From: Bacteroidota bacterium | GTDB lineage: Bacteria > Bacteroidota > Bacteroidia > Chitinophagales > Saprospiraceae | Direction: 5' to 3' | NCBI GenBank assembly: GCA_037130425.1 | Contig: JBAXTB010000001.1 | Location: forward strand, 2,527-66,526 | Length of the DNA: 64,000 nucleotides | Shown: positions 1,802 to 52,943 of the stretch, in pieces | Layout: each line of letters opens with the position of its first letter | How positions within the stretch are numbered: position 1 is the first letter of the stretch | Translations under genes and position numbers: made by a program | Notes under the pieces: generated by a model | Database searches by the model: none | What the model was told of the DNA's origin: nothing | The model's input: only the letters and a program-made list of their open reading frames with translations

Positions 1802-1814
1802 GTGGTTTGAATTT

Positions 1815-3032: not shown

Positions 3033-3055
3033 GATTTTTTGGTGGCGGTACTATG

Positions 3056-17671: not shown

Positions 17672-20600
17672 CTATTTTACAACACTCAAACGCAGGGCGC
17701 CCCATTGGCGACCATCTGTAATTTGCAGGAAATACATGCCCTGCGGCAATGCTTCCAGGTCAAGTGTGGTCGTAAAATTGTTTCCTACAGGGTTGTATTG
17801 TAAGGTATGCAACAAACGTCCTGCCGCATCCAGCACCTGAACCTGCAATTCATTCGGCGCACGATTCAGTGACAAACGGAACTGACCAGGGCCAGGATTC
17901 GGCGATACAGAAAGCCCCCAGGCCGCACCCGGTTCAACGGTGCCGCTCAGGATAATGAGGTTTTCAACTAAGGTACTGCAGCCGTTTGCATCCACCACGT
18001 GTACGCTGTACACACCTGGGCCGAGGCCCTGGAATACTGCGTCGGGATTATAGACTATACCATCTAAACTAAAGAAATAAGGCCCTGTTCCGCCGCTTGC
18101 GCTCACCACAATCGAATCAGAAGATGCGGTGGCCGTAGCCGTTAATTCAGGAACATCATTAATGGTAAATGAAAGGGTTTGTGTAAACCCGGCATTATCC
18201 GTCACCACCAATTGGTACGTTCCTGCTGTTAACTGTGTGATTTCGAAATTGTTACCGCAGTTACCGCTCGTGCTTGCAATGGTTCCCCCGGCAGGCGTAA
18301 GTTGACCAGCCGTGATGGGTGAGTAGCCGCCGTTTACACAAATTTCTGCCCGTCCGTCGCTGCCGCCGTGGCAGTTAATGCCGGTTGTAGACGTGAGGGA
18401 AACTGCGATCGTATTGCCCAATACTTCAAAACCGCCGGATGTTGTGCAGCCGTTGGCGTCTGTGCTGATTACGGTGTACACATTCGGCGCCAAATCCGTT
18501 AATGGCAATTGAGGAATGCCGTTCACCGTGTATGTATAAGGCGCTGTGCCGCCATTGAAAACCAATGTTGCATTGTTGTCAACCAAGTTAATGTCCATCG
18601 TAAACAATGCAGGCGATGTAATCGTCACATTCACAGTCATTTCCGTGCCCACAGCGTCTTTTGTTGAAACCGCGTAATTGCCGGCAGCAAGGTTTGTAAA
18701 GAGGTTGCTGCCCTGGTAAGGATTGGCATTTAAACGATATTCATAAGGGGGGATGCCGCCCGTAGCCAAGGCCATAATGCCGCCTGTTTGGTCGCCAAAG
18801 CACAAAATTGCCTGGGTCGCGCCGGCAGTGAGTGTTAAGGCTGGCACGTTTACAGATACAGCCTTTGTTGCCGTACAGCCATTTACGTCCTTCGCCGTTA
18901 CGGTATAATCGCCGTTCTGCACATTATTAAACGTGTTGCCGGTTTGGAAATTCAGCCCGTCAATGCTGTATGTCCATGCGCCTGTACCGCCGGCAGCCTG
19001 GGCTGAAATGACATTCAGGTTTGAACTTGCAGTCACCGAAAGTACGGGCGGATCAGTGAGTGTTATCGTGTTTGTTACGGCGCTAAAACCGGCGTTATCT
19101 TTTACCGTAATCGTGTAAGTACCGGCACTCAAGCCTGTAAATACGTTTTGATCCTGAAATAAAACACCGTCGAGGCTATAAGTAATCGGCGCTTGCCCGC
19201 CACCCACGGATACCGAAATGCTGCCGCTGTTGCTGCCTGCACACAATACATTGCCTGTTAATTCAGCCGTCACAATCAGCGTATTCACTGCCACAATGCC
19301 TTGCGCTGTGGCCGTACAACCGTTTGCGTCCTTTGCCGTTACAACATATACGCCGTTTGACAAACCTGTAAACGTGTTGCTTGCTTGGAAATTCACACCG
19401 TTTATGCTGTATGTGTACGGCCCGCTGCCGCCCGCTGCCGTAGCGCTGAGGTCGGCATTATTCACGTTGGCGCTGACAGAAACCGGCGTTGGGTTGGAAA
19501 TCACCACCACATTCGACGTTTTGGTAAATCCAAATTGACCGGTTACGGTAATTGTGTATGATCCCGCTGCCAGATTTGTAAATACATTGGACGATTGTTG
19601 CACGCCGTTGTTGATGCTGTACTGGTATTGGCCGTTCAGCCCTGTTGCAGTCACCGTGATTTTAGCATCGGCGCCGCCCACGCACAAAACCGGCGCCGTT
19701 TGGGTAGCCGTTGCGCTCAGGTTGTTTTGAATGACAGACACATTAAATACCGCGTGGTGCAGCCAGGCTTGGTTGTTCTGGTCAAGCGCATCGAAGTAGA
19801 AATTATCAGCCAGCGAATTATCGCCGTTGTGGGTATAGGTCAACAAGCCGGCATTAATATTGGCTTGGGTAAACGTAGCGCCGACGCTCAAGGCCACGCC
19901 ATTAAGGTACAAAGTTCCGTGTTGCGGCAGGCTGAGTACCGTAAATACGCCTTGCGCGGTTGTGCCCGTGGTGGTCATTACCAAATACCCGTTTCCGATG
20001 GTGTTGGAACCGCCTTGCGGAACAATCAGCGTTTGGCTGGTATTCAAACTGCCCGCAGGTAAAGCCGCCGGGAAACAGAAATTCAGGCTCCAGGCCGTCA
20101 GCGAACCGCCGTCTTGAGCAAAGTTATCTATTACAGACAAAATCCAGTCGCCTTGTGCAGCGTGACCGTTTACACCGGCAAGTGCGTCAATAGACTGGAA
20201 GTTTCCAAGTAGCGCTGTGCCGGTAGCGGAACAGGTGTTTTCAAGCGCTACTGCATCTTGTGCAGCGGCATCGTCAAATACCAAATCAACATTCGGATTG
20301 GCGCAACCGTAAGCCGTTGCAGGCACGCCGGGCTGGTCGAATAACTGAATATTTTGCCCCCAAGGCGTTGTCAATTTTGCTGAAAGGTCGCCCACATACG
20401 AGTGGGTAATTTTCAGGGTCATGTTGACGTCGTTGATAAGGGAAGTTGCGGGGATCGTCAGTTTTGAGGTGACAGTAGTAGCGGCCGTCGTGCTGATTAC
20501 TTTTGGCACATCCGTAGCCGGGAATAATTGGTTGCAGGAACTTCCGCCGGTTTGGAAAGATGACGCCGCTGAAGCTACACCCGAACCGCATTGGTTGGCC

Positions 20601-27582: not shown

Positions 27583-29357
27583 ACTTCACCCGGCTTTTCG
27601 ACCTGTTGGAATATCAGCAATTCCGCTTTCCACAAGCAGCCGCCATGTCGGCACGGGATGCAAATGGCTGGCGTAGTTGGCGTACAGCAGATTTGATTGC
27701 TGAGCGAGATCGCCTGAGTGCGGGACTGCTCGGTTTCGGATGGCATACGGGCGACCGGGTTGGTATTATGACGCACTGTGGAAGTCCGAGATGGATGATT
27801 GCCGATGCGGCCTTGATGCAAATAGGATTGGTGCCCGTGCCCATACACGCCACTGCCCGGCCTGACGAGATTGCGCACATCGCGCGCGACGCGGGATTGC
27901 GCGCCTGCTTCGTGAGCAACGGGGAAATGCTGGAAAAATTCAAGCAAGCCGTGGAAATACCGCCGTTGCTCATTGGGTTTGAAAAACTTGAGGGTACTCG
28001 ACACTGGGACGACATTGCCTGCGACCCGGATGAAAAGGACTTTGAGCGGATCAAATACTTTAAAGACGGCGTGCAGGAACAAGACCTTGCCACCATTTTA
28101 TACACTTCTGGTTCCACCGGGATGCCGAAAGGGGTGATGCTCAGCCATTTCAATATTGTTAGTAATGTAAAATCCGTGCTGGCCATCGTGCCGGTGGGGC
28201 CACATACCTCGGCGGTTAGTTTTTTACCGTTGAGCCACGTATTCGAGCGCATGGTGGTGTACGTGTACCAATCGGCGGGTGTGCCGATATGGTTTGCCGA
28301 TGCGGTGGAAAACCTGCCGCAAATTTTTAAAGAAGTTCGTCCGCATTTTTTCACGGCCGTGCCGCGCATTTTGGAACGCAGTTACGATACGCTGGTACAA
28401 GAAGGCATAAAATCGGGGCCGCTCAAACGCCGCATTCTAAACTGGGCCATTGCCCTTGGCGAGCGCTACCCCTATTCCGGCGAACCCGCCATGCCGCCCC
28501 TTTATCGGCTTAAAAGGATGCTGGCCGACCTCCTTGTGTACCGGCATTGGCGCAAGCGCATGGGCGGGCGCGTACAAGCCATTGCGGTAGGCGCGGCAGC
28601 TTTGCGGCCAAGCCTGGGTCGACTGTTTTCGGCTGCGGGCATAGATGTGCGCGAAGGTTACGGATTGACCGAGACCAGTCCGGTCGTGGCTTTTAACCGC
28701 TTTGAGCCTGGCGGCGTGCGTTTTGGCACCGTTGGCATTCCCGCGCCCGGTGTGGAAGTGCGCATCGGTGAACCTGACGAAAACGGCGATGGTGAAATAC
28801 AGGTGCGCGGCCCGAATGTGATGCTTGGATACTGGCAATTGCCGGAGGAAACTGCCGCGCGTTTTACCCCTGACGGCTGGCTGCAAACCGGCGACAGCGG
28901 CCGCTTCGAACACAAGCGTTTTTTGCGGATTACCGGCCGAAAAAGCGAGATTTTCAAGACCAGTTCGGGTAAATTCGTAGCGCCCGCCTTTGTGGAGGCA
29001 CAATTGAACCAGCATTTGCTTATTAGTCAAAGTATGGCGGTTGGGCTGAATAAACCCTATGTGGCCGCCTTGATTATCCCTGATTTTAATCAATTAGAAG
29101 CCTGGTGCCGCGCCAACAACGTACACTGGACGGCGCCGCAGTACATGGTGCTCAATCCGAAAGTGGAAAAACTGTTTCAGAAAGAAATTGAGCAAATAAA
29201 TCAAACCCTGCTCGGCAGCGTGGAGGCTGTGCGCGCGTTCAAACTGCTGCATGAGCCTTGGACGGCGGAAAACGGGCTGTTGACGCCCACGTTGAAATTG
29301 CGGCGTGAGATCATTGGGGATAAGTTTCGGGAGGAGATTGAGGGGATGTTTAAATGA
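27579..29357 (+). CDS. long-chain acyl-CoA synthetase (AMP-forming, FadD-like)
   Basis: AMP-binding signature YTSGSTGMPKGV, plus GYGLTET and TGD...G..ITGRKSEIFK motifs. ATGA start/stop overlap with the MFS gene. Confidence 0.9.
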   Translation: MNFTRLFDLLEYQQFRFPQAAAMSARDANGWRSWRTADLIAERDRLSAGLLGFGWHTGDRVGIMTHCGSPRWMIADAALMQIGLVPVPIHATARPDEIAHIARDAGLRACFVSNGEMLEKFKQAVEIPPLLIGFEKLEGTRHWDDIACDPDEKDFERIKYFKDGVQEQDLATILYTSGSTGMPKGVMLSHFNIVSNVKSVLAIVPVGPHTSAVSFLPLSHVFERMVVYVYQSAGVPIWFADAVENLPQIFKEVRPHFFTAVPRILERSYDTLVQEGIKSGPLKRRILNWAIALGERYPYSGEPAMPPLYRLKRMLADLLVYRHWRKRMGGRVQAIAVGAAALRPSLGRLFSAAGIDVREGYGLTETSPVVAFNRFEPGGVRFGTVGIPAPGVEVRIGEPDENGDGEIQVRGPNVMLGYWQLPEETAARFTPDGWLQTGDSGRFEHKRFLRITGRKSEIFKTSSGKFVAPAFVEAQLNQHLLISQSMAVGLNKPYVAALIIPDFNQLEAWCRANNVHWTAPQYMVLNPKVEKLFQKEIEQINQTLLGSVEAVRAFKLLHEPWTAENGLLTPTLKLRREIIGDKFREEIEGMFK

Positions 29358-29648
29358 TTCCGAGTGTGAGGGGATGGGACGCGGATGACGCGGATCCTTC
29401 CAGGGCGCAGATTTAAAAGGATTTTCCGAGTGCGAGGGGGGACACAGATGACACGGATGCAAGCAACACAGATGACTTGATCTTAAGAAAGGATAAATCT
29501 GTGTCCGTAGGCCGTGTCATCTGTGTTTCCCCTCGCATTCGGCAAACTATATTAAATATCCATGCCCTATCCCCTCGCACGCGGCAAATCCTTTTAAATC
29601 TGTGTCCTGACAGGATCCGTGTCATCTGTGTCCCCTCCTCGCACTCGG
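29358..29648. repeat. composite intergenic element: four ~60-70-bp units in -> -> <- <- orientation (nested inverted repeats)
   Basis: Unit core is CCGAGTG[T/C]GAGGGG..GAC[A/G]C[A/G]GATGAC[A/G]CGGATCC..CAGATTTAAAAGGAT. Forward copies start at about 29360 and 29426; reverse copies end at about 29542 and 29648. Example: GACACAGATGACACGGAT (29441-29458) versus ATCCGTGTCATCTGTGTC (29614-29631). Confidence 0.9.
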
Positions 29649-29658
29649 CCATCCCAAC

Positions 29659-30171
29659 CTAAAGATACCGTTCCTTAAAAATCTCTACATGATGCAACTG
29701 ATGCCCCACAATCACCCAAAACATCGTGCGGGTAGATACATTCCAATTGCTCGCGGTGCCCATAAATGTTGATTGCTCCTCACTGCATTGTTTGGCCAAG
29801 AAAATAGAATTCTCGCGCACGACTTTCCATTCTTTCAACAAATCTTTGACGGTTCGGCTTGATACATCGGCCTGTTCCATCCACATATCCTGATTGAAGC
29901 CGGGCATGGGCGCACGGTCGCCGCGCATAAACCACAAGGCCCGGAACGCAAACACCCGCTCTGTGTCGATGATGTGGATAAGCAGTTCCTTGACGGTCCA
30001 TTTTCCTTCGGCGTAGGCATAGTCGCCCTTGTCCTCCGGGAGCGCGCCGAAAAGATCCTGCGCTTCTTTAAACGTTTTTTTTAACAGGGAATTTAAGGAG
30101 CCGCGTGCCGGTAATTTGCTGAGGTAACCTTCGTGAAAGGGCGCGAATTCGCCTGCTATTGGACGTTTCAT
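29659..30171 (-). CDS. DinB-family (DinB_2/YfiT-like) metal-dependent protein
   Basis: 170 aa with KWTVKELLIHIIDTERVF and GHQLHH, the His-triad pattern typical of the DinB superfamily. Confidence 0.88.
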   Translation of the reverse strand: MKRPIAGEFAPFHEGYLSKLPARGSLNSLLKKTFKEAQDLFGALPEDKGDYAYAEGKWTVKELLIHIIDTERVFAFRALWFMRGDRAPMPGFNQDMWMEQADVSSRTVKDLLKEWKVVRENSIFLAKQCSEEQSTFMGTASNWNVSTRTMFWVIVGHQLHHVEIFKERYL

Positions 30172-30473
30172 AAAAAGATAGGTAGATTCTGTTTAAAGGC
30201 AAAAATAAGTAAGAAATTATTGGCAATTCATTTTTAAAGAACAAAAAATACCCTTAGTATTGTCATGCAATTTTTTGCACTTTACAATTTGGAATAGAAG
30301 CAATATCAAGCCTCTTGTGTGTTGAACTGCCGTAAGTCAAATCTTTAGAATCACCTCGGCAGCTTTATAATATATTTCAAGCCATAATAGACAGTCTGTT
30401 ATCTCATCAGAGATACGGTCTTTTATTAGCATTAAAAACCTATATATTAACACACAAAACCTAACGTGTCCCA

Positions 30474-33335
30474 ATGAAATTCACTTTTACTTTTCTGTCA
30501 TGCATTATTTGCATTCATTCCGTTTTGGGCCTGAACAGCGTGGTTGGTCAGTCAGCAACGTTGGCGGATTTTACTTTGGAAGAACTTGGCGTTTTTCCCA
30601 AATATTTATTCGATATCGGCCCTGAACCAATCAGTTTTAAAGTCATTTACCCGGGAAATCAACCCGTCGCCTGCGAAGGTTGTGGAACCGAAAGTTTTAT
30701 TCGAATATCCAGGACAAACGCCGATACGAGTCAAGCCTTAACCGTACTTGTAACGTGGAGCGGAACCGCCGTCGCCAATGTTGATTATCTTTTACCACCT
30801 TCCAGTTTTGTCATTCCGGCTGGAAAGTTTTTTATTGACAAGCCGATATTTGTCTTTTCTGACGGCATCGTGGAACCGCTTGAAACTGTGGTGATTACAT
30901 TAAACGACTCTTGCGCCTGCGTTACGGATACCTTGCGTATACAGGATTTGCCGGCATTGACGGTCGATCTTCAAAATGCAACGATCCATCCCGGTGAAAC
31001 AACGACTTTGACGCCTTTAGTTGCCGGCGGCATTTCGCCTTACAGTTACCTCTGGAACAACGATAGCACCACTTTGTCGATCACCACTGGAATGACGGGC
31101 GTTTATTTTGTATCCGTAACGGATCAATGTGGGCAAACGGCAGAGGATGGCGCCACCGTAACCTATCCGGATACCAGTTGCAGTTACGTAGACCCGATTT
31201 TTATCCCGGATGGCGCTTCTGCGGAATTGCCCTTGGTCATCCACGGCGCTACCAACCCGATCCTCGGCGCGAACGGCCAGGGTTTATGCGGCGTGCGATT
31301 GAATTTTGACCATGAATACATCGGCGATCTTATCATTACCTTGACATCGCCAAGCGGGCAGTCGGTTATGTTGGTTGGTTCGCCGGGACTGTATGGACCT
31401 ACTGATTATACGACTTGGGCAATTTCCTTTGTTCCGTGCAGTGTGCCCGCCGAGCCGGACCCCGGTTTTCCGGCGTATTGGAGCAGCAATCAACCCTGGG
31501 GTCTTTTTGGTAATTATACCGGTTCTTATTACCCCGCCGGCAGCTGTCTGGAGAGCTATTCAGGCCCGGTGAACGGCACCTGGACGCTCAAGGTACAGGA
31601 TGTTCAAGCGATTGACGTGGGCAATTTCTACAGTTATGAACTCCTTTTTTGCGATCCGACTGGTATCAACTGCACCTTTTGCAGCACGAGCGCGCCGATT
31701 ACACATATAAAACCGCCTAAAGTATTATGTATTGATGATCTGCCGTATACCTGGGATGAGTTGCCGCACACGGTTTTAACGGGATCGGGCACGTATGAAC
31801 TGAGTTCTTCCGGATACACAACTGTAAACGGATGCGACAGCATTGTGAAACAAACCATTACGATACTTAATCCATACACCTCCATTATCTCGGCTGCTAC
31901 GCAACTCAATTGTTCGCGGGATTCCATCACGCTGTTTTCCGAGCCTTTCTTCGGAAGTCCGGGCGTAAGTGTGAAAACCTGGACCAACCTGAACACGGGC
32001 GAAACGACGGTTGCGGATACCTGCACCGTCAGAACCCCCGGCGCTTATGTACTGACCAACACCATCAGCTACGATAGCACCAGTTGTTCGTATTCAGACA
32101 CAATTACCATTACGTCACAGTCCACGCTGCTTGAAATGTTTGCCATCGGCGGCGATCAGGGTTGTGCGGGCAATATTGTTCTGTTGGATTATTACCCGGG
32201 CGATGCGTTCTGGACCTTTACCTGGACCGGCCCCAATGGATTTACCTCGAACAGTCCCAAGCCGTATACGGATATTCCCGGCGATTACACCCTGATGGTC
32301 AGTAATGGTCAGGGTTGTTCGGCCAGTTCTGTTGCGACGGTCTCGCCAGGCGCTCCGCCCTCGAATGTTACGGCCCAGGGCGGCGTGCTGGGTTGCCAGA
32401 CTGGTAGTGTACAAATATTCGGCAATTCATCCGATCCGAATGTTTATTACACCTGGAGCGGTCCGAATGGTTTTCTGTCCTACAATCAGAACCCGTTTGT
32501 GTCGGTTTCCGGTGTTTACAAAGTGACGGTGACATCGCCCAACGGTTGCACGAACATGGCTGAAGCGCTGGTAACAGATCCCCCGCCGTCGCCATCTGTC
32601 GGTTTTGTTATGCCGATTGTGGTAAGTTGTGCGGAGCCAGCACAGTTGGTTTGTCTGACGAATGCGACAATGCCGTCATTCGAATGGTCTGGCCCGGAAA
32701 ATTTCAGTTCCATTGAAGCGAAACCATTCGTGTATGTACCGGGTCTGTATGCCGTGACCGTTACCGACGGGGTCACGCATTGCAAGGCGAACGCGACGCT
32801 CAGCGTGCAAGCAGACTCTGCCGCGCCGATTTTCCAAATCATACAAGTGGTACAACCGAGCAACGGACAAAACAACGGCAGCATCAATATTTCCACCAGC
32901 GGCGCGCCGGGGCCTGTTACATATCTTTGGTATTACAACGGAAACACCTTCCCTTATGCTTTTACGGAGGATATTGAAAACCTGGCGGCAGGCTTTTATA
33001 GTTGCATTGCCATGGCGGCCAACGGCTGCTCCAATGTTGAATATTTTACCTTGCAAAACACCATCGCTACCCACGCGGCTTCTGTTATTTCGCCCTGGCG
33101 CATTCGTCCCAACCCAAGCCCCGGCCGTTTTGTGCTGTGTTGCAACAAGGACGCCGGCCCGATCCGCCAATTGCGCGTGTACGAAAGCGGCGGCCGTTTG
33201 ATCCGGGAGCAGACGCCGGGTAAAGTGCAGGATGAATATTTGATTGATTTGGCGGATGAGGCAGAAGGGGTTTACTTTTTGGAAGTTAGGGGGGAAGAAG
33301 GAAGTGTGTGGATGAAATTGGTGGTGGCGCGGTAG
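30474..33335 (+). CDS. T9SS type-A cargo with Calx-beta-like domain, proprotein-convertase P-domain and Ig-like repeats (953 aa)
   Basis: Signal peptide; Calx-beta-like WSGTAVANVDYLL...EPLETVVITLND; P-domain FDHEYIGDLIITLTSPSGQSVMLV. The C-terminus is IRPNPSPGRFVL...GVYFLEVRGEEGSVWMKLVVAR. Confidence 0.88.
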   Translation: MKFTFTFLSCIICIHSVLGLNSVVGQSATLADFTLEELGVFPKYLFDIGPEPISFKVIYPGNQPVACEGCGTESFIRISRTNADTSQALTVLVTWSGTAVANVDYLLPPSSFVIPAGKFFIDKPIFVFSDGIVEPLETVVITLNDSCACVTDTLRIQDLPALTVDLQNATIHPGETTTLTPLVAGGISPYSYLWNNDSTTLSITTGMTGVYFVSVTDQCGQTAEDGATVTYPDTSCSYVDPIFIPDGASAELPLVIHGATNPILGANGQGLCGVRLNFDHEYIGDLIITLTSPSGQSVMLVGSPGLYGPTDYTTWAISFVPCSVPAEPDPGFPAYWSSNQPWGLFGNYTGSYYPAGSCLESYSGPVNGTWTLKVQDVQAIDVGNFYSYELLFCDPTGINCTFCSTSAPITHIKPPKVLCIDDLPYTWDELPHTVLTGSGTYELSSSGYTTVNGCDSIVKQTITILNPYTSIISAATQLNCSRDSITLFSEPFFGSPGVSVKTWTNLNTGETTVADTCTVRTPGAYVLTNTISYDSTSCSYSDTITITSQSTLLEMFAIGGDQGCAGNIVLLDYYPGDAFWTFTWTGPNGFTSNSPKPYTDIPGDYTLMVSNGQGCSASSVATVSPGAPPSNVTAQGGVLGCQTGSVQIFGNSSDPNVYYTWSGPNGFLSYNQNPFVSVSGVYKVTVTSPNGCTNMAEALVTDPPPSPSVGFVMPIVVSCAEPAQLVCLTNATMPSFEWSGPENFSSIEAKPFVYVPGLYAVTVTDGVTHCKANATLSVQADSAAPIFQIIQVVQPSNGQNNGSINISTSGAPGPVTYLWYYNGNTFPYAFTEDIENLAAGFYSCIAMAANGCSNVEYFTLQNTIATHAASVISPWRIRPNPSPGRFVLCCNKDAGPIRQLRVYESGGRLIREQTPGKVQDEYLIDLADEAEGVYFLEVRGEEGSVWMKLVVAR

Positions 33336-33347
33336 GGGTGGGAATAA

Positions 33348-33471
33348 CGAATATCGAACAAGGGGAATATCGAATATCGAATGGGGGCGTTGCGGCTGGG
33401 TATTTTGGGAGGCTGGGCGCAGCGCCCCCCGTTCGATATTCGGTGTTCGATATTCATCTGTTCGATATTTT
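33348..33471. repeat. about 124-bp palindromic element: 3 forward and 3 reverse copies of GAATATCGAA flanking a GC-rich stem
   Basis: Forward copies at 33348-33359, 33365-33374 and 33372-33381. Reverse TTCGATATT[C/T] at 33432-33441, 33446-33455 and 33461-33470. Core GGGGGCG (33383-33389) pairs with CGCCCCC (33423-33429). It starts 13 nt after the stop of CDS 30474..33335 and probably also acts as its terminator. Confidence 0.9.
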
Positions 33472-33574
33472 ATGATGGGTTGAAGATTGTTAATAGCGGC
33501 ACGAATTAAATGATTCCAAATAATGGGTTTATTATACATTTGCCCATACGCAAGTATTAACAAACTGTACTGAT

Positions 33575-36328
33575 ATGCCCCTAAGTTGGAATGAAATAAA
33601 ATCCCGCGCCCTTGCTTTCTCGAAAGAATGGGAAAACGAAAGCAGCGAGCACGCTGAATCTAAGCCATTTTGGGAAAAGTTTTTTAAGGTCTTCGCAATT
33701 GAGCGAAAGAGTATTGCCCGATACGAGGCTTCAGTAAAAAAATTAGGCAACAAACAAGGCTATATTGACCTGTTTTGGCCGGGAAACTTAATTATCGAGC
33801 ATAAATCAAAAGGAAAGGATCTTGATAAAGCCTTTCATCAAGCCATAGACTATTTTTCAGGGCTAAAGGAATATGAGATACCTAAATTTATTCTTGTATC
33901 CGATTTCCAACGGTTTCGACTGTACGACTTAGAAGCTTCTACACAGCACGATTTCCCGCTGAATGAATTGGCCGCCAACGTGCATTTATTCGGGTTTATA
34001 GCCGGGTATCAAAAACGGGTGTACAAAGACGAAGACCCCGTAAATATTGAAGCAGCCGAACGCATGGGACGGCTACACGACCGCTTAGAGGAAGCGGGCT
34101 ACACCGGTCACGCGCTGGAAGTGTATTTGGTGCGGATGCTCTTTTGTTTATTTTCCGAAGACACCGGCATATTTGAGCGCACACAGTTTCAGGACTTAAT
34201 AGATACCCATACCAAAGAAGACGGCAGCGACTTAGCCTTGCAATTAGCCCAACTGTTTCAGGTGTTGAACACACCGCCCGACAAGCGCCTGAAAGTCCTG
34301 GATGAAACCTTGGCAGCCTTCCCGTATGTGAACGGGAAACTATTTGAGGAAAACTTGCCCTTAGCCGCCTTTGATAGCAAGATGCGGGAAATGTTGCTGA
34401 ATTGTTGTGCCTTGGATTGGAGCCAAATTTCACCCGCCATTTTCGGTTCCATGTTTCAGGCTGTTATGAACCCGAAAGAGCGCCGCAATTTGGGGGCGCA
34501 CTACACGTCGGAAAAGAATATTCAGAAAGTAATAAAGCCGCTGTTTCTGGATGAACTGTACACCGAATTTGAAAAGGCCAAAGGCAACCGAAACCGCCTG
34601 AACGAACTACATCGCAAAATTGCCGCCTTGCATTTCCTTGACCCCGCGTGCGGATGCGGTAACTTCCTGATTATTTCATACCGGGAATTGCGCAACCTGG
34701 AATTGTTGATTTTGCGCGAACTAAACAAAACCGGGCAAATGTTCCTTGATGTTAAGGAAATTATCCGGGTAGATGTTGACCAATTTGCCGGAATTGAATA
34801 CGATGAATTTCCGGCACGGGTAGCCGAAGTGGCTATGTGGTTGATGGACCACCAAATGAACATGAAAGTGTCAGATGAGTTTGGGCAATATTTTGTGCGT
34901 TTGCCGCTGAACAAGGCCGCTAAAATCGTGCATGGTAACGCGTTGCGGGTAGATTGGGCCGAAGTCGTGCCGAAAGAGCAGTTGAGTTATATTTTGGGAA
35001 ATCCGCCGTTTATTGGGGCCAAAATGATGAATGAAACCCAAAGGGCTGATATAATTGCTATCACCCCAAATTTGGACGGGGTTGGGCTACTTGATTATGT
35101 TTCAGCGTGGTATTTGAAGGCAGCACAATTTATCCGTGATACTCTTATTCAGGTTGCCTTTGTGTCCACCAATTCCATAACCCAAGGTGAACAAGTAGGT
35201 GTACTTTGGGGTAATATGCTTTCTAAGGGTGTTAAAATCAATTTCGCCCACCGTACATTCAAATGGAACAACGAAGCAAGAGGAGTGGCCGCCGTCCATT
35301 GTGTAATTGTTGGTTTTGCAAGTTTTGATGCAAAGCAAAAACTCATTTTCGATTACCAAGATGCGAAAGGAGAGCCAAGTCAAATCAGCGCACAAAATAT
35401 AAATCCTTATTTGGTAGATGCCGCGACAGTCGTTTTAGTACGACGTTCAAAACCACTTGGTAACGTGCCTGAAATTGGAATTGGAAATAAACCGATTGAC
35501 GGCGGCCATTATTTATTTACCACAGAGGGAAAGGTGAATTTTTTGGAAAAAGAGCCTCAATCTGCACGTTACTTCAGACGTTGGATTGGTTCGGATGAGT
35601 TTATTAATGGTTGGGAACGTTGGTGCCTTTGGTTAGGAGAATGTCCACCAGATGTTCTGCGCAAGATGCCCGAAGCTATGAAACGAGTGCAAGCAGTTCG
35701 CGAATTTAGACTTGCCAGCAAAAGCGCACCGACCCAAAAACTTGCCGAAACCCCAACACGGTTTCATGTCGAAAATATGCCTGATACTAATTTCTTGATA
35801 ATTCCAGAGGTATCTTCAGAAAGGCGAGCTTACATACCAATTGGGTTTGTTTCGCCTGAAACGTTGGCAAGTAACCTGGTAAAAATTATACCCAAAGCCT
35901 CTCTTTATTTATTCGGGGTATTAACATCTTTAATGCACATGTCATGGGTGCGTAGTGTGTGCGGGCGATTGGAAAGCCGTTACCGCTACTCAAAAGACAT
36001 AGTTTACAATAATTTCCCTTTCCCTATCAACCCAACCGACGCGCAAAAGCAAAAGGTCGAAGCTGCCGCGCAAGCGGTACTCGATACACGCGCCAAATAT
36101 CCGAATAGCAGCCTTGCCGATCTGTACGACCCTTTAACCATGCCGCCCGACCTGATTAAAGCGCACCAAGCCTTAGACAAAGCGGTTGATCTGTGTTACC
36201 GCTCGCAGGCGTTTACAAGCGAGTTGAACCGGATAGAATTTTTGTTTGGGTTGTATGAGCAGTACACCGCGCCGATGTTTAAAGATGAAGTCAAGAAGAA
36301 CAAGCCCCTTAAAAAAGCCAAAGATTAA
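33575..36328 (+). CDS. MmeI-family Type IIL (IIG) restriction-modification enzyme: single-chain endonuclease, N6-adenine methyltransferase and target recognition domain (917 aa)
   Basis: The N-terminus MPLSWNEIKSRALAFSKEWE...YIDLFWPGNLIIEHKSKGKDL gives the D65-X9-E75-X-K77 nuclease motif. SAM motif I is FLDPACGCGNFL and motif IV is ILGNPPFIG. Length and collinearity match MmeI (919 aa) as I recall it. Confidence 0.9.
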   Translation: MPLSWNEIKSRALAFSKEWENESSEHAESKPFWEKFFKVFAIERKSIARYEASVKKLGNKQGYIDLFWPGNLIIEHKSKGKDLDKAFHQAIDYFSGLKEYEIPKFILVSDFQRFRLYDLEASTQHDFPLNELAANVHLFGFIAGYQKRVYKDEDPVNIEAAERMGRLHDRLEEAGYTGHALEVYLVRMLFCLFSEDTGIFERTQFQDLIDTHTKEDGSDLALQLAQLFQVLNTPPDKRLKVLDETLAAFPYVNGKLFEENLPLAAFDSKMREMLLNCCALDWSQISPAIFGSMFQAVMNPKERRNLGAHYTSEKNIQKVIKPLFLDELYTEFEKAKGNRNRLNELHRKIAALHFLDPACGCGNFLIISYRELRNLELLILRELNKTGQMFLDVKEIIRVDVDQFAGIEYDEFPARVAEVAMWLMDHQMNMKVSDEFGQYFVRLPLNKAAKIVHGNALRVDWAEVVPKEQLSYILGNPPFIGAKMMNETQRADIIAITPNLDGVGLLDYVSAWYLKAAQFIRDTLIQVAFVSTNSITQGEQVGVLWGNMLSKGVKINFAHRTFKWNNEARGVAAVHCVIVGFASFDAKQKLIFDYQDAKGEPSQISAQNINPYLVDAATVVLVRRSKPLGNVPEIGIGNKPIDGGHYLFTTEGKVNFLEKEPQSARYFRRWIGSDEFINGWERWCLWLGECPPDVLRKMPEAMKRVQAVREFRLASKSAPTQKLAETPTRFHVENMPDTNFLIIPEVSSERRAYIPIGFVSPETLASNLVKIIPKASLYLFGVLTSLMHMSWVRSVCGRLESRYRYSKDIVYNNFPFPINPTDAQKQKVEAAAQAVLDTRAKYPNSSLADLYDPLTMPPDLIKAHQALDKAVDLCYRSQAFTSELNRIEFLFGLYEQYTAPMFKDEVKKNKPLKKAKD

Positions 36329-36329
36329 C

Positions 36330-36342
36330 AAGGCTAAGCCTT
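36330..36342 (+). terminator. mini-hairpin directly after the R-M gene stop
   Basis: AAGGC-TAA-GCCTT is followed by TATCTTTC. The stem is only 5 bp, so it is weak. Confidence 0.35.
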
Positions 36343-36394
36343 TATCTTTCACCATATTAAGATAAAAAATATTAATTCGATTTAAAAACACCGT

Positions 36395-36402
36395 TATATT
36401 TG
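36395..36402 (+). promoter_or_regulatory. Bacteroidota-type -7 box (TAnnTTTG) upstream of the three-gene operon
   Basis: TATATTTG ends 10 nt upstream of the ATG at 36412. This implies a very short leader, as is common in Bacteroidota. Confidence 0.4.
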
Positions 36403-36411
36403 TGACCCCTT

Positions 36412-36984
36412 ATGGAGCATGATGTCAAAATAGTACACTTTATTGGCTGGCATGGCGCTGATGAAAATGATTTGGATAGCATCCAAAAAAATAATTTTCG
36501 GGAAAGCACGGGCGACCACCATTGGATTGGTGATGGTGTTTACTTTTTCACTGAAAGGATTGGTGATCCGATTGCCCACGCAGAAAATTGGGCTAAAAGT
36601 GAAGCTTATAAAAAGAAATACCGCCGTTTTGTTGTGATAAAGGCGTCTATCTCGGTCAATGATGATGCCATTTTAGATTTAAATGACACTGTTGGGCTTG
36701 AACTATTCAATCAACATAGGAGTTATGTGCTTAGCGCTTTAAGCAGTAAGGGTAAATCTTTTCGCACTGTTGATGTGAAATATTCTGACAGTAAAGTGAT
36801 AGAGCATTTGAAACAAAGAGCCGGTATTGAGGTTGTAATACGTGATTTCTACGTTCAATTTGGAGAAGATCGTAAAAAAAATATATCGTCACGAGTTCCT
36901 AATTGTACGTTTCTTTGTGTTTCTAATCCTGATGAAAACATTGACCCTGATACAATAAAGGTTGCTCGCAGGGGAAATACTTGA
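36412..36984 (+). CDS. hypothetical 190-aa protein with a PARP-like H-Y-E motif pattern (candidate ADP-ribosyltransferase-fold toxin)
   Basis: WHG (H14), GDGVYFF (Y44) and IEVVIRD (E140). The order and spacing resemble the PARP/diphtheria-toxin-type ART triad. It is the first gene of a tight operon that ends in a SecB-like gene. The fold assignment is inference only. Confidence 0.75.
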   Translation: MEHDVKIVHFIGWHGADENDLDSIQKNNFRESTGDHHWIGDGVYFFTERIGDPIAHAENWAKSEAYKKKYRRFVVIKASISVNDDAILDLNDTVGLELFNQHRSYVLSALSSKGKSFRTVDVKYSDSKVIEHLKQRAGIEVVIRDFYVQFGEDRKKNISSRVPNCTFLCVSNPDENIDPDTIKVARRGNT

Positions 36985-37003
36985 AAGCCAAAATACATCA
37001 ACA

Positions 37004-37318
37004 ATGAACGCTGACGCTATCAAAAAACGATTAGAAGAATACTACCGAACGGCTACACCTGAAAAAATGATTGCTGAATTCGAGGCAATGGGTGTAGAGT
37101 TTGTGGATATTCAGGAGCCTTTTGAGGTCAAATATGATTTCGAATCTACGGCTAACGTTATGTTTAATAACGAGTCGCGCTCTTGGTTTGATAACTTATC
37201 CATTAAGCAAACAGAAGAAGCTTATTCGATGACTACACAGACAAAAGTTGCAGGTCACACCAATCAATCTTCAGGTCAACAGGTCCAAGAAGATTTTCAA
37301 TGCGCAATGGCCGCCTAA
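37004..37318 (+). CDS. small acidic hypothetical protein (104 aa), candidate antitoxin/adaptor
   Basis: The ATG is 19 nt after the upstream stop. The protein is Glu/Asp-rich with a polar Q/S/T-rich C-terminal tail and no recognisable DNA-binding motif. An alternative TTG start at 36962 would overlap the upstream gene. Confidence 0.65.
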   Translation: MNADAIKKRLEEYYRTATPEKMIAEFEAMGVEFVDIQEPFEVKYDFESTANVMFNNESRSWFDNLSIKQTEEAYSMTTQTKVAGHTNQSSGQQVQEDFQCAMAA

Positions 37319-37325
37319 CCTATAT

Positions 37326-37740
37326 GCAATTTAAATTAGCACACACAGAAGTCCTTTACCTCCAATTTGAAAAAATAAATCATAGTGAGGTAGAGGCCGA
37401 TAAGGGAGGCGGTTTGGATGATCCATACAAACTGAAGTTAAGTGTTTTCCCTGACTCGAAGCATCCTGATATGTTTGGAGTGCTTTTTGATATAGAACTG
37501 ACACACCAGGATAGTTTTAAGATTAAATTGCACTATTTAGCATGGTTTGATGGTCCTAAGCCATTCCTCCAAGAAGATATTGAATCTCCTTTTGCGCTAA
37601 TTAATGCCCCTGCTATTGCCTTTCCATACTTACGCAGCTTTATATCGCTGCTTACCCTTAATGCTGGCTGCCCACCTGCATTTCTTCCCCCTATTAATTT
37701 TTTAAAAATGTATGAAGAGGCTAAAAGTGAAAAGCAATAG
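37326..37740 (+). CDS. SecB-like chaperone (138 aa)
   Basis: It aligns with SecB along its whole length. FKLAHTEVLYLQFEKIN corresponds to E. coli FQIQRIYTKDISFEAPN. NAPAIAFPYLRSFISLLTLNAGCPPAFLPPINF corresponds to [32 protein letters not shown]. The start is taken at ATG 37326; the ORF-track start 37300 overlaps the upstream gene. Confidence 0.8.
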
Positions 37741-37797
37741 CCAAATGCTTGGGTAGAAGCTTTATAAATAATGGCATACCCCACCTTGACGAAAAAC

Positions 37798-37836
37798 AAA
37801 AGGCTAAATGTCTGATTTGAGGACGTTTAGCCTTTT
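37798..37836 (+). terminator. strong rho-independent-type terminator of the three-gene operon
   Basis: AAAAGGCTAAATGTC pairs with GACGTTTAGCCTTTT: a 15-bp stem with one G:U and a 9-nt loop (37813-37821), followed by GTTTT. Confidence 0.7.
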
Positions 37837-38064
37837 GTTTTAGAAAATCCCCGACCTATTAAATGTGTATGTGTTTCCAAGGTGTACTCAAAGGCAGTGC
37901 AGGGCATTCACATTTTGCAGGAAACCAAAGCAGAACTTAAAAATCTTGAAAGGCAATTTAGGCCACCTCAAAGCCTGTCCGCCTGGGAACTATACCCAAA
38001 TCTGTACCTAAAAACAAAAAAGGCCAACATTCTGTCCTCCAGAATTTTGACCTTTAATTTTTTG

Positions 38065-38138
38065 CGGACTGGACGGGACTCGAACCCGCGACCTCCGCCG
38101 TGACAGGGCGGCATTCTAACCAGCTGAACTACCGATCC
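38065..38138 (-). tRNA. tRNA-Asp (anticodon GTC)
   Basis: The reverse complement reads GGATCGGTAGTTCAGCTGGTTAGAATGCCGCCCTGTCACGGCGGAGGTCGCGGGTTCGAGTCCCGTCCAGTCCG. It folds as a cloverleaf with anticodon loop CTGTCAC and is near-identical in the D and T arms to E. coli tRNA-Asp. There is one C:A mismatch in the acceptor stem. CCA is not encoded. Confidence 0.93.
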
Positions 38139-39642: not shown

Positions 39643-41602
39643 AATCTTGCTAAACGAAAAACAAAAGTCGCTGTTAATCGATGTTGTCGAAACGTTTGTT
39701 GAAGTTTCGTCAGAGAAACCAATTTTTAATCTCCCGGAAATAGCGAATCGGATTGCTTTGGTGCTTAATGAAAAATCACCCGAAGAACAAGCCGATTTCA
39801 AACAACTTTTAACACTTCTTGATTCATCGTTCCTTGGATTCACCTGGAATGGACCAATTCGTTCATTTTCACAATTAAACAAATCACAACGAGAGGAATT
39901 ATTTCAATCTTGGTCAAATTCAAAATTTACCTTAATCCGAAAAGGGTATCAAGCTTTAAAAAAACTCTGTTCATTTATCGCATTTTCACAAACGGATGAA
40001 TTAGGAAATAGCTTCTCAAAATCAATCACTCAGTATAAAGGATCACCTATATCAGAAAAAGGAATTCCTCCAATTCAATCATTACAATTTCTCAATCCAA
40101 GTTCAAACATACGCTGTGAAGTTTTAATTATAGGATCTGGAGCTGGTGGTGGTGTTGCAGCTTCACGTTTCGCTAAAGCTGGAAATGAGGTTGTAATTGT
40201 TGAAAAAGGTCCTTGGATTCCCGAATCTGCTATGAGCAATCTTGAAGCGGAAATGGTGAGTCAACTGTATGAAGAACGAGGAGCTCTGAGTTCGGCAGAT
40301 GGCGCCATGACTGTTTTTGCAGGTGCCTGTTTAGGTGGTGGGACAACCATAAATTGGCAAGCTTGTATCAAAACACCCGAGTATGTTTTGGAAGAATGGG
40401 CGGAAGAAAGTGGAATTGAAGATTTTGTAAAACCGATTTATCAGAAACATCTACAACGTGTTTGGGATCGTATTGGTGCTGGATCAGAAAAAATCATTCA
40501 TAATAGAAATAACCAACATTTAATTTCGGGCAGTATCGCGCTTGGGCAAGAAGTCAATGAAATTGCCAAGAATAGCTCTCATTGCAATCATGATGATGCA
40601 TATCGCTGTGGTTGGTGCGGTTTCGGATGCAAACAAGGTAACAAACAAAGTAGTTTAAAAACATTCATCCAAGACGCAACTGATCATGGTGCTAAAATTC
40701 TTGATCGAACATCTATTGATCGATTGATTTTCAATGGAAATAACATTCAAGGTGCAATTGGCATCCATACGGATATAAATGGAAAACAAACCCATGTCCG
40801 AATTGAAGCAAAACGAGTTATTGTATCAGCCGGAAGTATTCATTCACCCGCACTTTTGCTCCGTAGTGGAATTCGTCACCCTCAACTCGGAAAAAATCTC
40901 TATTTGCATCCCGTTGTTCCTGTTTCTGCTATTTATAAGGAAACGATTGAAGCCTGGACTGGAGCTATGATGACAAGTACAAATGACGAATACATTCGAC
41001 TAAATGGTCGCTATGGCTACAAAATAGAAACACCGCCTCCTCATCCCGGTTTATTGGCTTTAGGGATGCCTTGGAAAAGTGCCAAGTCGTTTCAAGAACG
41101 TATGTCACAAATTCAAAATTTAGGCGTTTTTATTGTGTTGAGTCGCGATCAGTTTGGTGGTGAAATCAAACTAAGCAGAGATGGAAGACCAATCATACAT
41201 TATGATCTGCATCCCAATGATCAAATAACATTGATGCATGGAATGATGAATGCAGCTCGAATTCATGCAGCAGCAGGTGCAATAGAAATCGCTTTACCTC
41301 ATAATAATCCAACCTATCTTCCATCGGATATAGTTAAGAATGATGATAAATTTAATGCAATCGTTCAAGATATGCGCTGGAAAAAAGGAGACTTTACACT
41401 ATTCAGTGCACATCAAATGGGGACTTGTCGTATGGGGAATTCGTATGTAAACGATGTCGTAAACCCCGATGGAAAAGTATGGGGATTAAATGGATTGTAT
41501 GTGATGGATGCAAGTGTTTTCCCCAGATGCAGCGGAGTAAACCCAATGATTAGTATTCTCGCACTGAGCGATTACATGTGTAGTCGACTATTAGGAGATT
41601 AG
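39599..41602 (+). CDS. GMC-family FAD oxidoreductase with an N-terminal extension of about 170 aa
   Basis: FAD fold IIGSGAGGGVAA, GMC body and C-terminal HQMGTCRMG signature. The start is uncertain: ATG 39599 overlaps folA by 44 nt, and an in-frame TTG at 39647 is the alternative. Confidence 0.85.
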   Translation: MCTHLLSKCWKGNNKILLNEKQKSLLIDVVETFVEVSSEKPIFNLPEIANRIALVLNEKSPEEQADFKQLLTLLDSSFLGFTWNGPIRSFSQLNKSQREELFQSWSNSKFTLIRKGYQALKKLCSFIAFSQTDELGNSFSKSITQYKGSPISEKGIPPIQSLQFLNPSSNIRCEVLIIGSGAGGGVAASRFAKAGNEVVIVEKGPWIPESAMSNLEAEMVSQLYEERGALSSADGAMTVFAGACLGGGTTINWQACIKTPEYVLEEWAEESGIEDFVKPIYQKHLQRVWDRIGAGSEKIIHNRNNQHLISGSIALGQEVNEIAKNSSHCNHDDAYRCGWCGFGCKQGNKQSSLKTFIQDATDHGAKILDRTSIDRLIFNGNNIQGAIGIHTDINGKQTHVRIEAKRVIVSAGSIHSPALLLRSGIRHPQLGKNLYLHPVVPVSAIYKETIEAWTGAMMTSTNDEYIRLNGRYGYKIETPPPHPGLLALGMPWKSAKSFQERMSQIQNLGVFIVLSRDQFGGEIKLSRDGRPIIHYDLHPNDQITLMHGMMNAARIHAAAGAIEIALPHNNPTYLPSDIVKNDDKFNAIVQDMRWKKGDFTLFSAHQMGTCRMGNSYVNDVVNPDGKVWGLNGLYVMDASVFPRCSGVNPMISILALSDYMCSRLLGD

Positions 41603-42333
41603 AAAATATCGAATTTGTTTCCCTTTTCCTTTAATTGAAGATAATGTTCATTATCGAAACGATATAACATAGGTGCTTTCCCACTTTCTTCCCATGGACT
41701 ATACGTTTCACCCGTTTCTATAATGACATCTTGACCCAATATTTTACGACGAAAATTGCGCTTATCTAACTCGTGACCAAGAACTGCTTCATACATTTCC
41801 TGAACATGTTTAATGGTGAATTTTTCAGGCAATAAGTCGAATCCTGCTAATTGTGTACTCATTTTAGCAAGCAAACGTCGATGAGCAGCGTCAACAATGT
41901 CATTATGATCGAATGCCAAGCTTGGAATAGATTTCAGTTCAAACCAATCGGCCGATTTATGTTCTTCGCTTGGCTCAAACTTTCTACATTGTTGAACATC
42001 AACAAAGCAATAATATCCAATGCTCACTACTCGACCTAATGGATGGCGAGAAGTATCAGTAAACGCTCTGATTTGTTTTTTATAAAAACGACCCGTTCCA
42101 GTAATTTGATGCACAATCTGATCGACCTTCTCTTGCATCGAATCGTTTGGATAAACTAATTCGGCTGGTAATGAATAAGTATTTTTAAATGGATCGCGAG
42201 TTCTTTTAACAAGCAATACATGGATCTTCTTATTCATTAATCCAAAGATGACACACGAAACTGAAAATGCCGAACGAAAATAATGATTCAACTCATCTGT
42301 TGGAGCAAATCGATACGATGTCATTTTGTCCAT
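41599..42333 (-). CDS. NrtR-like regulator (Nudix-fold domain plus C-terminal winged-helix)
   Basis: Nudix-like core without an intact catalytic box. The C-terminal LLPEKFTIKHVQEMYEAVLGHELDKRNFRRKIL is typical of the NrtR/AraR (Bacteroides) family. The first ATG is at 42333. Confidence 0.75.
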   Translation of the reverse strand: MDKMTSYRFAPTDELNHYFRSAFSVSCVIFGLMNKKIHVLLVKRTRDPFKNTYSLPAELVYPNDSMQEKVDQIVHQITGTGRFYKKQIRAFTDTSRHPLGRVVSIGYYCFVDVQQCRKFEPSEEHKSADWFELKSIPSLAFDHNDIVDAAHRRLLAKMSTQLAGFDLLPEKFTIKHVQEMYEAVLGHELDKRNFRRKILGQDVIIETGETYSPWEESGKAPMLYRFDNEHYLQLKEKGNKFDIF

Positions 42334-42524
42334 AAAACCTATATTTAAGTGTCGACATTGCAAATATACGCCAACATTTTTAGCTACTCTACATCAATAC
42401 TCGATATTATATTATCATATTAATAATAATCAATTTCATTCTTCCGATTTAACTTTTTATGAAAATGCAAAAGAAATTAAATGAAGTCTATTCAGGGCTT
42501 AACCAAAAATGATTAAACTAAATT

Positions 42525-48039: not shown

Positions 48040-48208
48040 TTACCGATTTTCAATTAACCTGTTCAAAACATACTTATAAATGAGAATTCATTTGCTATTA
48101 AATTAAATGAGTTCCATGTATGAATAAATAATAGTAAAGTTACTATTTGAGAAGCTAACTATTCAATGACACATATTAATTAAGCTAATTTTTAAAATGT
48201 AAAACTAA

Positions 48209-48239
48209 CTAAGTAAAATTATAAATCAATTTTACTTAG
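48209..48239 (-). terminator. AT-rich hairpin downstream of CDS 48453..49856
   Basis: CTAAGTAAAATT pairs with AATTTTACTTAG: a 12-bp perfect stem with a 7-nt loop. Confidence 0.45.
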
Positions 48240-48452
48240 AATTGATAACATCCTTAATGGTGAAATAAATAATGCATTATTTAACATTCCAAAAAATAAT
48301 TTAATGAATTATTAAACAACAAATTTTAAGACGAAAATATCTTCAACAAAATTTCCATTCAAGCATTCTTTTTTCTGCATAAATAAAATTCAGTTGAATA
48401 TAAATTAGATCATTGAGTATAAAATATAACGACCATTCTAAATATTGATTTT

Positions 48453-49856
48453 CTATTTGTTAAACTTTTCATAATTCTTCAAAAAATCTTCAATCTTTTC
48501 AACGTCAATTCTTTTTGCTATAATTTTCTTATTTCTATCCAACACATATAAAACTGGAGTTGAATAAATATCATAGTATTTTCGAAACTGAGCAGTTCCT
48601 AAAAGATCAGCAGCATTAATCCAATTTAGCTCTTTCTCCTTGATATATTTAAACCATTCCGATGTATCAGCTTCAATATAAACACCTAATACTTCTAAGT
48701 CAAATTCCTTTTTATATGTAATATAAAAATCTCTCAGTTTAGGAGTAACTTTTTGACAATGTCCGCAACTTGGGTCCCAAAAATAAACAAGAGTATATTT
48801 CTTTTTTATATCATTTAAAGCAATTGGATGAAAGTCACTTTTTAAAAGATGCATATTATTAGCAGTTACACCAATTAAACAAGGCTCTAACGCAGATACT
48901 CTTTCTTTAATTTTACCTAATTGTTCATCTTCAACCCAATAAGCCTTACCATTCATATAGTAGTTTTTTGCCATATAGACAAAAACAGCATCCATTCCCA
49001 TAATTTCGGATTTCTCATAAGTATTTGTAATCCAATATACAAGGAACTTAAATGTTTCACTTTTCTCGTCAGTTAGATTAATCACTCGTTTCGCTGCTTG
49101 ATTAATAGAATCTGGAATTTGAGGGGTTAATTTTTCAAAATACTGTTTAATTTTATTACCAAATACAGGAGATCTTAATAATCTATCATCCTTTAGATCA
49201 AACTTATCAAAATAATGAGCTTTGTAATATCTATAAGCAAATGTTGAATCTTTTCGTCCATTACTTAAGATTGGTGTTTCTGGAATTTCCGGCTCCCAAC
49301 TTGCATTAAATATTTTAGAAAGCAACATTTCGGGATGATTCGAGATAAATATATTCTTGTAGTCTTTAACTGATCTATCTATACTATTTTGTTCATCTCG
49401 AATCAATTTTAATTTACCCTCATCCCCCTTAGACATATCAAATTCTTTTTTCAATCGTTCCATTTCTTTACCTCGAACTGATATCCAATTTAAATATTCA
49501 TAAAAAGCTTCATTATCCTTCGAGCCTTTTACTTTCATATTTGAAATCAAATCCAAAGTATCAGTATCCATACTAAATCTTTGCTCTTTATCAACAATTA
49601 TTTCAAAATATTTGCGGCTTGGCAGTACCGCCAAGTATACACCTCCAGGTAGGTTCTCATCCCCTTTGAAAGTCAATTTTCCATTTTCATCAGCTAATGA
49701 AGAATCTCTTATATATTGTTTATCCCCAAAATAATAAGCTAATTGAATGTTTTGATTCTTAATCCCTTTAATAGTTAATTTGATTTCATAATTTCCAGCA
49801 ATCAGAAAAGTTCTAGAAATAAATATAAGGACAAGAAGGAGCAAACTCTTTTTCAT
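48453..49856 (-). CDS. TlpA-like thioredoxin-fold protein with a long N-terminal domain (467 aa)
   Basis: Signal peptide; C-terminal VYFWDPSCGHCQK CxxC motif. Confidence 0.8.
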   Translation of the reverse strand: MKKSLLLLVLIFISRTFLIAGNYEIKLTIKGIKNQNIQLAYYFGDKQYIRDSSLADENGKLTFKGDENLPGGVYLAVLPSRKYFEIIVDKEQRFSMDTDTLDLISNMKVKGSKDNEAFYEYLNWISVRGKEMERLKKEFDMSKGDEGKLKLIRDEQNSIDRSVKDYKNIFISNHPEMLLSKIFNASWEPEIPETPILSNGRKDSTFAYRYYKAHYFDKFDLKDDRLLRSPVFGNKIKQYFEKLTPQIPDSINQAAKRVINLTDEKSETFKFLVYWITNTYEKSEIMGMDAVFVYMAKNYYMNGKAYWVEDEQLGKIKERVSALEPCLIGVTANNMHLLKSDFHPIALNDIKKKYTLVYFWDPSCGHCQKVTPKLRDFYITYKKEFDLEVLGVYIEADTSEWFKYIKEKELNWINAADLLGTAQFRKYYDIYSTPVLYVLDRNKKIIAKRIDVEKIEDFLKNYEKFNK

Positions 49857-52895: not shown

Positions 52896-52943
52896 CTTTT
52901 ACTTCTTTTACTTTTCCCTAAATTTATCATATAATTCCAAGTA

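Follow-up and report, generated by a model that had tools for sequence, protein, structure and literature searches.

Misassembly is one source of chimeric contigs in metagenome-assembled genomes (MAGs), albeit a relatively rare one compared with mis-binning (PMC8201837, the GUNC paper). Genomic islands at the 3′ ends of tRNA genes are a second described arrangement in which two kinds of DNA meet, and the CmdTAC (PD-T4-9) system is an anti-phage system known from Escherichia coli (PMC9519451, PMC11618068). The present study concerns a stretch of 64,000 nucleotides (hereafter the window, whose coordinates are used throughout) from the 74.8-kb contig JBAXTB010000001.1 of a public Bacteroidota MAG (GCA_037130425.1), in which a GC-rich left block, a small defence island, a tRNA-Asp gene and an AT-rich right block follow one another. 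We consider it likely that this contig is an in-silico chimera of two unrelated, co-occurring lake bacteria, joined through the tRNA-Asp gene or the cassette of defence genes adjoining it. Like the chimeras of the GUNC paper, the contig appears to have two sources, is joined in conserved sequence and has sides that differ in lineage, which is the criterion of GUNC-type tools; unlike those chimeras in general, its join could be narrowed to a 52-nt tRNA core and has a mispaired hybrid tRNA as its footprint. The window also resembles the islands at tRNA 3′ ends in that a compositional step stands beside a tRNA whose 3′ end faces atypical DNA, with restriction-modification (R-M) and toxin-antitoxin-chaperone (TAC) genes adjoining, and in that the tRNA consists of a host 5′ part and a foreign 3′ part. 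It differs from them in having neither an integrase nor a repeat of the tRNA end, and in that both of its sides are ordinary chromosome of different lineages; only the 4.6 kb at 33.43–38.06 kb behave like a variable island.

The break in composition is truly present in the sequence. A preliminary description of the window had claimed an abrupt change in G+C content, and the step appears in a full computation based on 2-kb windows, on per-gene G+C and G+C at third codon positions (GC3), and on tetranucleotides. G+C in 2-kb windows is 44–55% up to approximately 34 kb, 38–42% at 36–42 kb, 34–36% at 42–48 kb, 24–30% at 48–58 kb, and 33–38% at 58–64 kb, such that the step of the earlier two-block picture stands and the homogeneous right side does not, given the trough at 48–58 kb. 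The per-gene computation gave G+C of 45.2–54.9% and GC3 of 0.476–0.649 for the 15 genes left of 36.33 kb, and 25.8–40.6% and 0.162–0.370 for the 20 genes from 36412 on; across the 83-nt spacer after a gene for an MmeI-family enzyme (36329–36411), GC3 drops from 0.476 to 0.309 in the next gene. Tetranucleotide usage normalised for mononucleotides gives r = 0.96 when the two halves of the left block are compared and only 0.02–0.49 when left segments are compared with right ones, the left-block signature correlates with that of Saprospiraceae loci at r = 0.75–0.79, and the k-mer signature of each block fits its own lineage. There are two boundaries, a minor step at 36.33–36.41 kb inside the left organism and the main seam, which is the tRNA-Asp gene at 38064–38138. 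The interval 33336–36411, previously taken as the meeting place of the blocks, is instead a small defence island belonging to the left organism, with the sharp GC3 step at its right edge (36329–36411), and the lineage boundary lies outside that interval, 1.7 kb further right, inside the tRNA-Asp.

Lineage hits, synteny and k-mers identify the left block (1–33425) as chromosome of a Saprospiraceae/Lewinellaceae-type bacterium of approximately 50% G+C. It encodes UvrA, two giant type IX secretion system (T9SS) proteins, several small T9SS cargo proteins, an Atg22-like MFS transporter, a long-chain acyl-CoA ligase, DinB, and a T9SS protein with a proprotein convertase domain. The UvrA is 79–83% identical to those of Lewinellaceae/Saprospiraceae MAGs whose local G+C is 48–53%, the ligase has many Saprospiraceae-named matches at 66–73%, and in one relative locus the genes for the MFS transporter, the ligase and DinB lie no more than 10 kb from uvrA. 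The right block (38139–64000) is, by homology to a closed circular contig of 4.2 Mb (L004), chromosome of an AT-rich lineage labelled Flavobacteriales. It carries genes for ThyA, FolA, a GMC oxidoreductase, an NrtR-like regulator, MarC, a GT2 glycosyltransferase, an LpxL-like acyltransferase, a GWxTD protein and GlpK, as well as a thioredoxin-family protein, an AddB-like nuclease, a Reg_prop/Y_Y_Y-SpoIIE protein, a ceramidase, an S8 peptidase, a GT1 glycosyltransferase and an acyl-CoA dehydrogenase. The GMC oxidoreductase has an 87% identical relative on L004, and nucleotide homology between L004 and the window sets in at 38061, where the tRNA has its 3′ end, and extends rightwards at 85–88% nucleotide and 87–97% amino acid identity with gene order kept. 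MarC, a 232-aa outer membrane protein-like protein and the GT1 glycosyltransferase fall into 90% clusters with proteins of MAGs named 'Flavobacteriales bacterium', one of these clusters also including the 4.2-Mb genome, and among the best 120 matches of the left-block ligase (all at least 65% identical) there is no protein of that genome. The marker-gene placement proposed in the preliminary description separates the two sides, in that UvrA groups with Saprospiraceae/Lewinellaceae and the thyA–glpK block is 87–97% identical in amino acids to the closed AT-rich genome. Judged by these sequence comparisons, the two blocks seem to belong to separate orders of Bacteroidota.

That a single genome could be natively this heterogeneous, with neither transfer nor misassembly, has a negligible probability in our estimation. 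Some heterogeneity is normal in the right-hand lineage, in that the AT trough of the right block is shared by its relative: at 48040–58000 the window has 24–30% G+C and GC3 of 0.16–0.22, and the orthologous part of L004 has 27–30%. The same trough is bridged in X1, the sequencing run that contains 96–99% of the words of the window and has unitigs identical to the Logan contigs of SRR12676975; because the orthologous stretch of L004 is similarly AT-rich and the X1 unitigs overlap across the trough without a break, we regard it as native to the right-hand lineage and not as a further seam. Against native heterogeneity, the blocks differ in nearest lineage and in k-mer signature, and in the closed relative AT-rich DNA flanks the tRNA-Asp on either side, for which reason that genome shows no compositional step; to the left of its tRNA, it carries genes of 28–38% G+C that are unrelated to those of the window.

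The seam itself falls in a hybrid gene for tRNA-Asp(GTC) (38064–38138, minus strand), which was predicted by ARAGORN and is the sole Rfam match of the window. The 3′ acceptor strand, with A68 (T38070), is of the left-flank type and is tied to the left flank both in L001, a contig of the independent MAG GCA_037139215.1, and in L002, a unitig of X1. The 5′ strand GGATCGG (38132–38138) and C16 (38123) are common to the window, L004, and L005, the last being a more distant AT-rich relative. In the ARAGORN structure, the acceptor stem of the window's tRNA contains a C5·A68 mismatch, and the tRNA of L004, which differs at 38070 only, pairs C5–G68. Among IMG/VR contigs, complete tRNA-Asp genes of the A68 type have the fully pairing 5′ strand GGACTGG in 20 of 20 cases, and one of these (L090) differs from the window's tRNA at positions 4–5 only. 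Contigs also break off inside the gene: L001 reaches 38121 and L002 reaches 38100, and L005 sets in at 38105. In X1, the last 31-mer of the left unitig starts at 38070 (the unitig ending at 38100), and the right unitig starts at 38093 with a first 31-mer that ends at 38123. The tRNA core at 38071–38122 (52 nt) reaches a depth of 380–4000× in X1 against 12–35× in the flanks and is therefore a hub of the assembly graph, and a join made inside this core would yield exactly the hybrid tRNA seen. No assembly crossing the join was found, L004 having a different left flank. The crossover is strictly bracketed to 36065–38122, the bracket reaching back to 36065 because the cassette is shared between two contexts, and it most likely lies within 38071–38122.

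Under the favoured explanation, the left part of the window (1 to approximately 38.07 kb) would be a Saprospiraceae/Lewinellaceae-type chromosome that ends with a defence island beside a tRNA-Asp, and the right part (approximately 38.12 kb to the end) an unrelated AT-rich chromosome labelled Flavobacteriales, in which a tRNA-Asp is followed by thyA and folA. Both organisms would have been present in the same lake sample, along with many other genomes that share the tRNA-Asp core of at least 52 identical nucleotides, and the assembler would have entered that core from one genome and left it into the other. What the sequences show are the two lineage affinities, the onset of homology precisely at the tRNA, the hybrid tRNA, the contig ends and the dissociation across samples; the absence of any DNA molecule with this join is our inference. 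The sides differ in lineage affinity, the join lies in a shared repeat and was not reproduced independently, and the sides occur independently across samples.

The last of these points comes from word searches of other runs. Words from 38.2–48 kb and from 48–58 kb were found in X1 only; those from the left block and the junction region were found in X1 and in X2, a run of another study, and the left block was also found in metatranscriptome runs of another sample, which hold left-block words only. X2 yielded exact contigs up to 37925 at 2–4× and nothing of 38.17–64 kb, although 38.2–42 kb matches the G+C of 36.4–37.9 kb. In none of the runs searched was the right block observed without the left block. 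That X2 contains the left block, 100% identical, but lacks the right block speaks against a real join, that is, a single genome with both blocks, brought together when a very recent transfer or recombination at the tRNA-Asp moved at least 26–38 kb of chromosome between two orders of Bacteroidota. Such a join has in its favour that the contig was assembled as one piece and that tRNA genes are known hotspots of recombination and integration. It is opposed by the mispaired hybrid tRNA, by the three other assemblies that break at the tRNA, by the housekeeping or otherwise ordinary chromosomal genes of both blocks, which are syntenic with their own lineages, and by the lack of an integrase, attachment-site repeat or mobility gene anywhere in the window. 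No integrase family was detected among the 35 window genes scanned, and no copy of 38064–38110 (at most 1 mismatch in 6) occurs elsewhere in the 64-kb window, a repeat beyond its left end being possible. We therefore hold a real join to be highly improbable, and a very large horizontally acquired region, the first of three explanations that had been offered for the break, is disfavoured. The second was a junction between replicons or strains; the third, a chimera near the R-M gene or the tRNA, is the one favoured here, with the tRNA instead of the R-M gene as the site of the join.

Several observations weigh against the chimera. The evidence from X1 is at the level of 31-mer unitigs, from which no phasing across 52 nt is possible, so an absence of spanning molecules does not follow from it. 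An assembler did make the join, and if it worked at k ≥ 55, this would imply a possible read k-mer with both T38070 and G38123. Neither the AT-rich organism's own flank to the left of the tRNA nor the left organism's own right flank has been shown in X1. The best homologue of the 643-aa protein in the corresponding flank of L004 (P0256, 79%) comes from another sample, and the 90% clusters are insensitive for finding a flank of the L004 type in X1, the positive controls being singletons; exact-pattern scans of Joint Genome Institute (JGI) metagenomes, aimed at the left flank with the tRNA and at the conserved tRNA–thyA spacer, found neither. Depth, too, can be read in favour of a real join: a regression on G+C alone fits the depth of all X1 unitigs (r = −0.90), and the flows at the tRNA (19.3× in, 35.4× in the spacer, 22× plus approximately 13× out) balance for a real or a chimeric join alike. 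The long X1 unitigs average 12.8 ± 1.2× on the left and 21.7 ± 2.5× on the right, a difference that is confounded with G+C and with strain mixtures, and two right-hand variants of the thyA region merge in the 35.4× spacer unitig. GC bias was considered as the cause of the depth step in X1 and gave a good fit, but its key point, the 19.3× unitig at 36156–38100, is the sum of two converging paths; because of this, and because the right side has two strain variants, depth is uninformative either way and was dropped as an argument.

The minor step at 36.35 kb is real DNA internal to the left organism, and the MmeI gene should be grouped, along with its three small downstream neighbours, with the GC-rich left block. 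L001 is equal to the window over 32502–38121 with 7 mismatches, all of them at 32954–33330, X1 has a single unbroken unitig through 32886–36094, and in X2 fragments of the left block, the MmeI gene and 36385–37925 occur as exact matches at low depth. A JGI contig from a relative of the left organism (L109), whose DinB falls in the same 90% cluster, is homologous to 29343–33425 and no further, continuing with 7 kb of ordinary sequence of 46–52% G+C in which there is no MmeI gene, no CmdTAC and no tRNA. On the evidence of L001, X1 and X2, and because it is absent from L109, we interpret the segment at 33.43–38.06 kb as a variable, lower-GC defence island in an organism of 50% G+C, which is an ordinary finding. 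It is also the only part of the window with accessory, variably present content, the large blocks carrying uvrA and a fadD-like gene on the left and thyA, folA, glpK and an lpxL-like gene on the right. The MmeI gene and the 33.4-kb repeat were also considered as sites of the seam and are rejected on the strength of the X1 unitig through 32886–36094 together with L001.

The first gene of the island (33575–36328, plus strand; 917 aa, 45% G+C) has the five Pfam domains of an MmeI-family Type IIG R-M enzyme in a single polypeptide (N-terminal, helicase-spacer, methyltransferase, target recognition and C-terminal; E = 3e-26 to 5e-95) and matches the PADLOC model REase_MTase_IIG over residues 3–899 of 917, by which we predict it to be such an enzyme. 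Its composition had been called intermediate and heterogeneous, which agrees with the 37–51% G+C that we obtained in 200-nt windows. The three genes that follow (36412–37740, plus strand; 38–41% G+C) are a putative CmdTAC/PD-T4-9-like toxin-antitoxin-chaperone system according to the operational definition of that system (PMC9519451), with a weak match for the toxin: a CmdT-like gene (36412–36984; PADLOC PD-T4-9_A, E = 4e-8), a middle open reading frame (36962–37318) of no detectable family that is the presumed antitoxin, and a SecB-like chaperone (37300–37740; PADLOC PD-T4-9_C, E = 7e-26; Pfam SecB, E = 2.6e-10). Compared with CmdTAC of E. coli, the window's genes come from an uncultured Bacteroidota and are known from sequence alone, the first gene matching weakly and the middle one lacking a detectable family.

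The cassette formed by the tail of the MmeI gene and the CmdTAC-like genes (36065–38100) has two contexts in X1, as seen from converging unitigs. A unitig with the window's allele at 11.8× and another at 5.8× converge after 36064 and continue into the 19.3× unitig; the 5.8× unitig has 8 mismatches over 35999–36094 (92% identical) and unrelated, AT-rich sequence upstream. A relative of the cassette at approximately 93% identity, again with a different upstream context, occurs in a bioreactor sludge run, where the 30 nt before window position 36224 resemble window 33620–33649 (4 mismatches), which suggests a copy from which most of the MmeI gene (approximately 2.6 kb) has been deleted. The two contexts bear on an alternative in which the contig is still chimeric and the hybrid tRNA is real: an AT-rich strain would carry the cassette at the 3′ end of its tRNA-Asp, complete with an A68-type end, and the switch between genomes would lie within 36065–38070. 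Elements that target the 3′ ends of tRNA genes typically swap that end for their own copy, which counts in favour of a physical hybrid tRNA, as do the second, AT-rich upstream context, the separability of the cassette as a unit (present in the sludge run in other surroundings and missing from L109) and the greater ease with which a 2-kb exact repeat, compared with 52 nt, explains a misjoin. Set against these are the lack of an integrase in 33.4–38.06 kb and of a direct repeat of the tRNA end in the window, the 5.8× depth, which fits neither right-hand variant (approximately 22× and approximately 13×), the second context, which was matched to no lineage, and the C·A mismatch, which is probably costly in the acceptor stem of a tRNA-Asp. 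We judge this alternative unlikely overall. It would place a cassette of approximately 2 kb, 100% identical, at the tRNA-Asp 3′ end of two unrelated Bacteroidota in one lake sample, which we find similarly doubtful, and a whole recombinant chromosome is less likely still; if true, a physical hybrid tRNA with its cassette would mean a very recent move between orders that replaced the tRNA end without a recognisable integrase. A chimera joined within the tRNA core is the reading that we prefer.

Several further features of the two blocks were recorded. In keeping with the preliminary description, T9SS C-terminal sorting domains occur in the left block only, and motif hairpins are found in its spacers at 1802–2022, 29358–29658 and 33336–33574, with nothing comparable on the right. 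In these spacers, short tandem motifs are followed by their inverse to form long hairpins (e.g., GAATATCGAA...TTCGATATTC), and relatives of the hairpin spacers (at least 90% identity) reach approximately 90–270× in X1 against 12× in the flanks, from which we conclude that such elements are numerous in the sample. Within uvrA, positions 7065–7734 show clustered single-base variants and a lower unitig depth in X1 (7.9–9.6×), a sign that the left organism is represented in the sample by two or more strains. Among the Saprospiraceae matches of the left-block UvrA was a protein at 67% identity from a MAG labelled 'uncultured Bifidobacteriaceae bacterium' (CAYRJA010000012.1, L060), which is probably a mislabelled or contaminated bin. 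No tRNA-Asp gene was found in 60 Saprospiraceae-type loci, exact look-ups with ThyA, the GMC oxidoreductase and the ligase returned no other contigs, and a joined query of UvrA and GMC oxidoreductase against the genome collection returned UvrA loci only. In the right block, the gene for the NrtR-like NUDIX regulator (41599–42363) is extra relative to L004 and is present in the more distant relative L005, and between glpK and the thioredoxin-family gene, L004 has a DDE transposase (17921–19129) and the window a 413-nt spacer of 21% G+C (48040–48452). The segment at 48453–57887 holds four large genes, encoding the thioredoxin-family protein, the AddB-like PD-(D/E)XK nuclease, the Reg_prop/Y_Y_Y-SpoIIE phosphatase and a neutral ceramidase, whose GC3 is 0.16–0.22 against 0.19–0.34 in their neighbours; the following 1,088 nt (57888–58975; 30% G+C) have no open reading frame of at least 100 aa and no Rfam match.

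The chief consequence is one of data quality, in that DNA from two orders of Bacteroidota is apparently mixed in one 74.8-kb contig of a public MAG, which would contaminate any analysis of gene content, taxonomy or horizontal gene transfer based on that MAG. A tRNA that stands at a compositional step and has a non-pairing acceptor stem offers a cheap diagnostic, as it marks a join made inside the tRNA. For the biology of these Bacteroidota, the headline break is probably not real, and neither a giant horizontal transfer nor a mosaic genome should be deduced from it; the defence island and its two contexts in one sample are the only part of modest biological interest.

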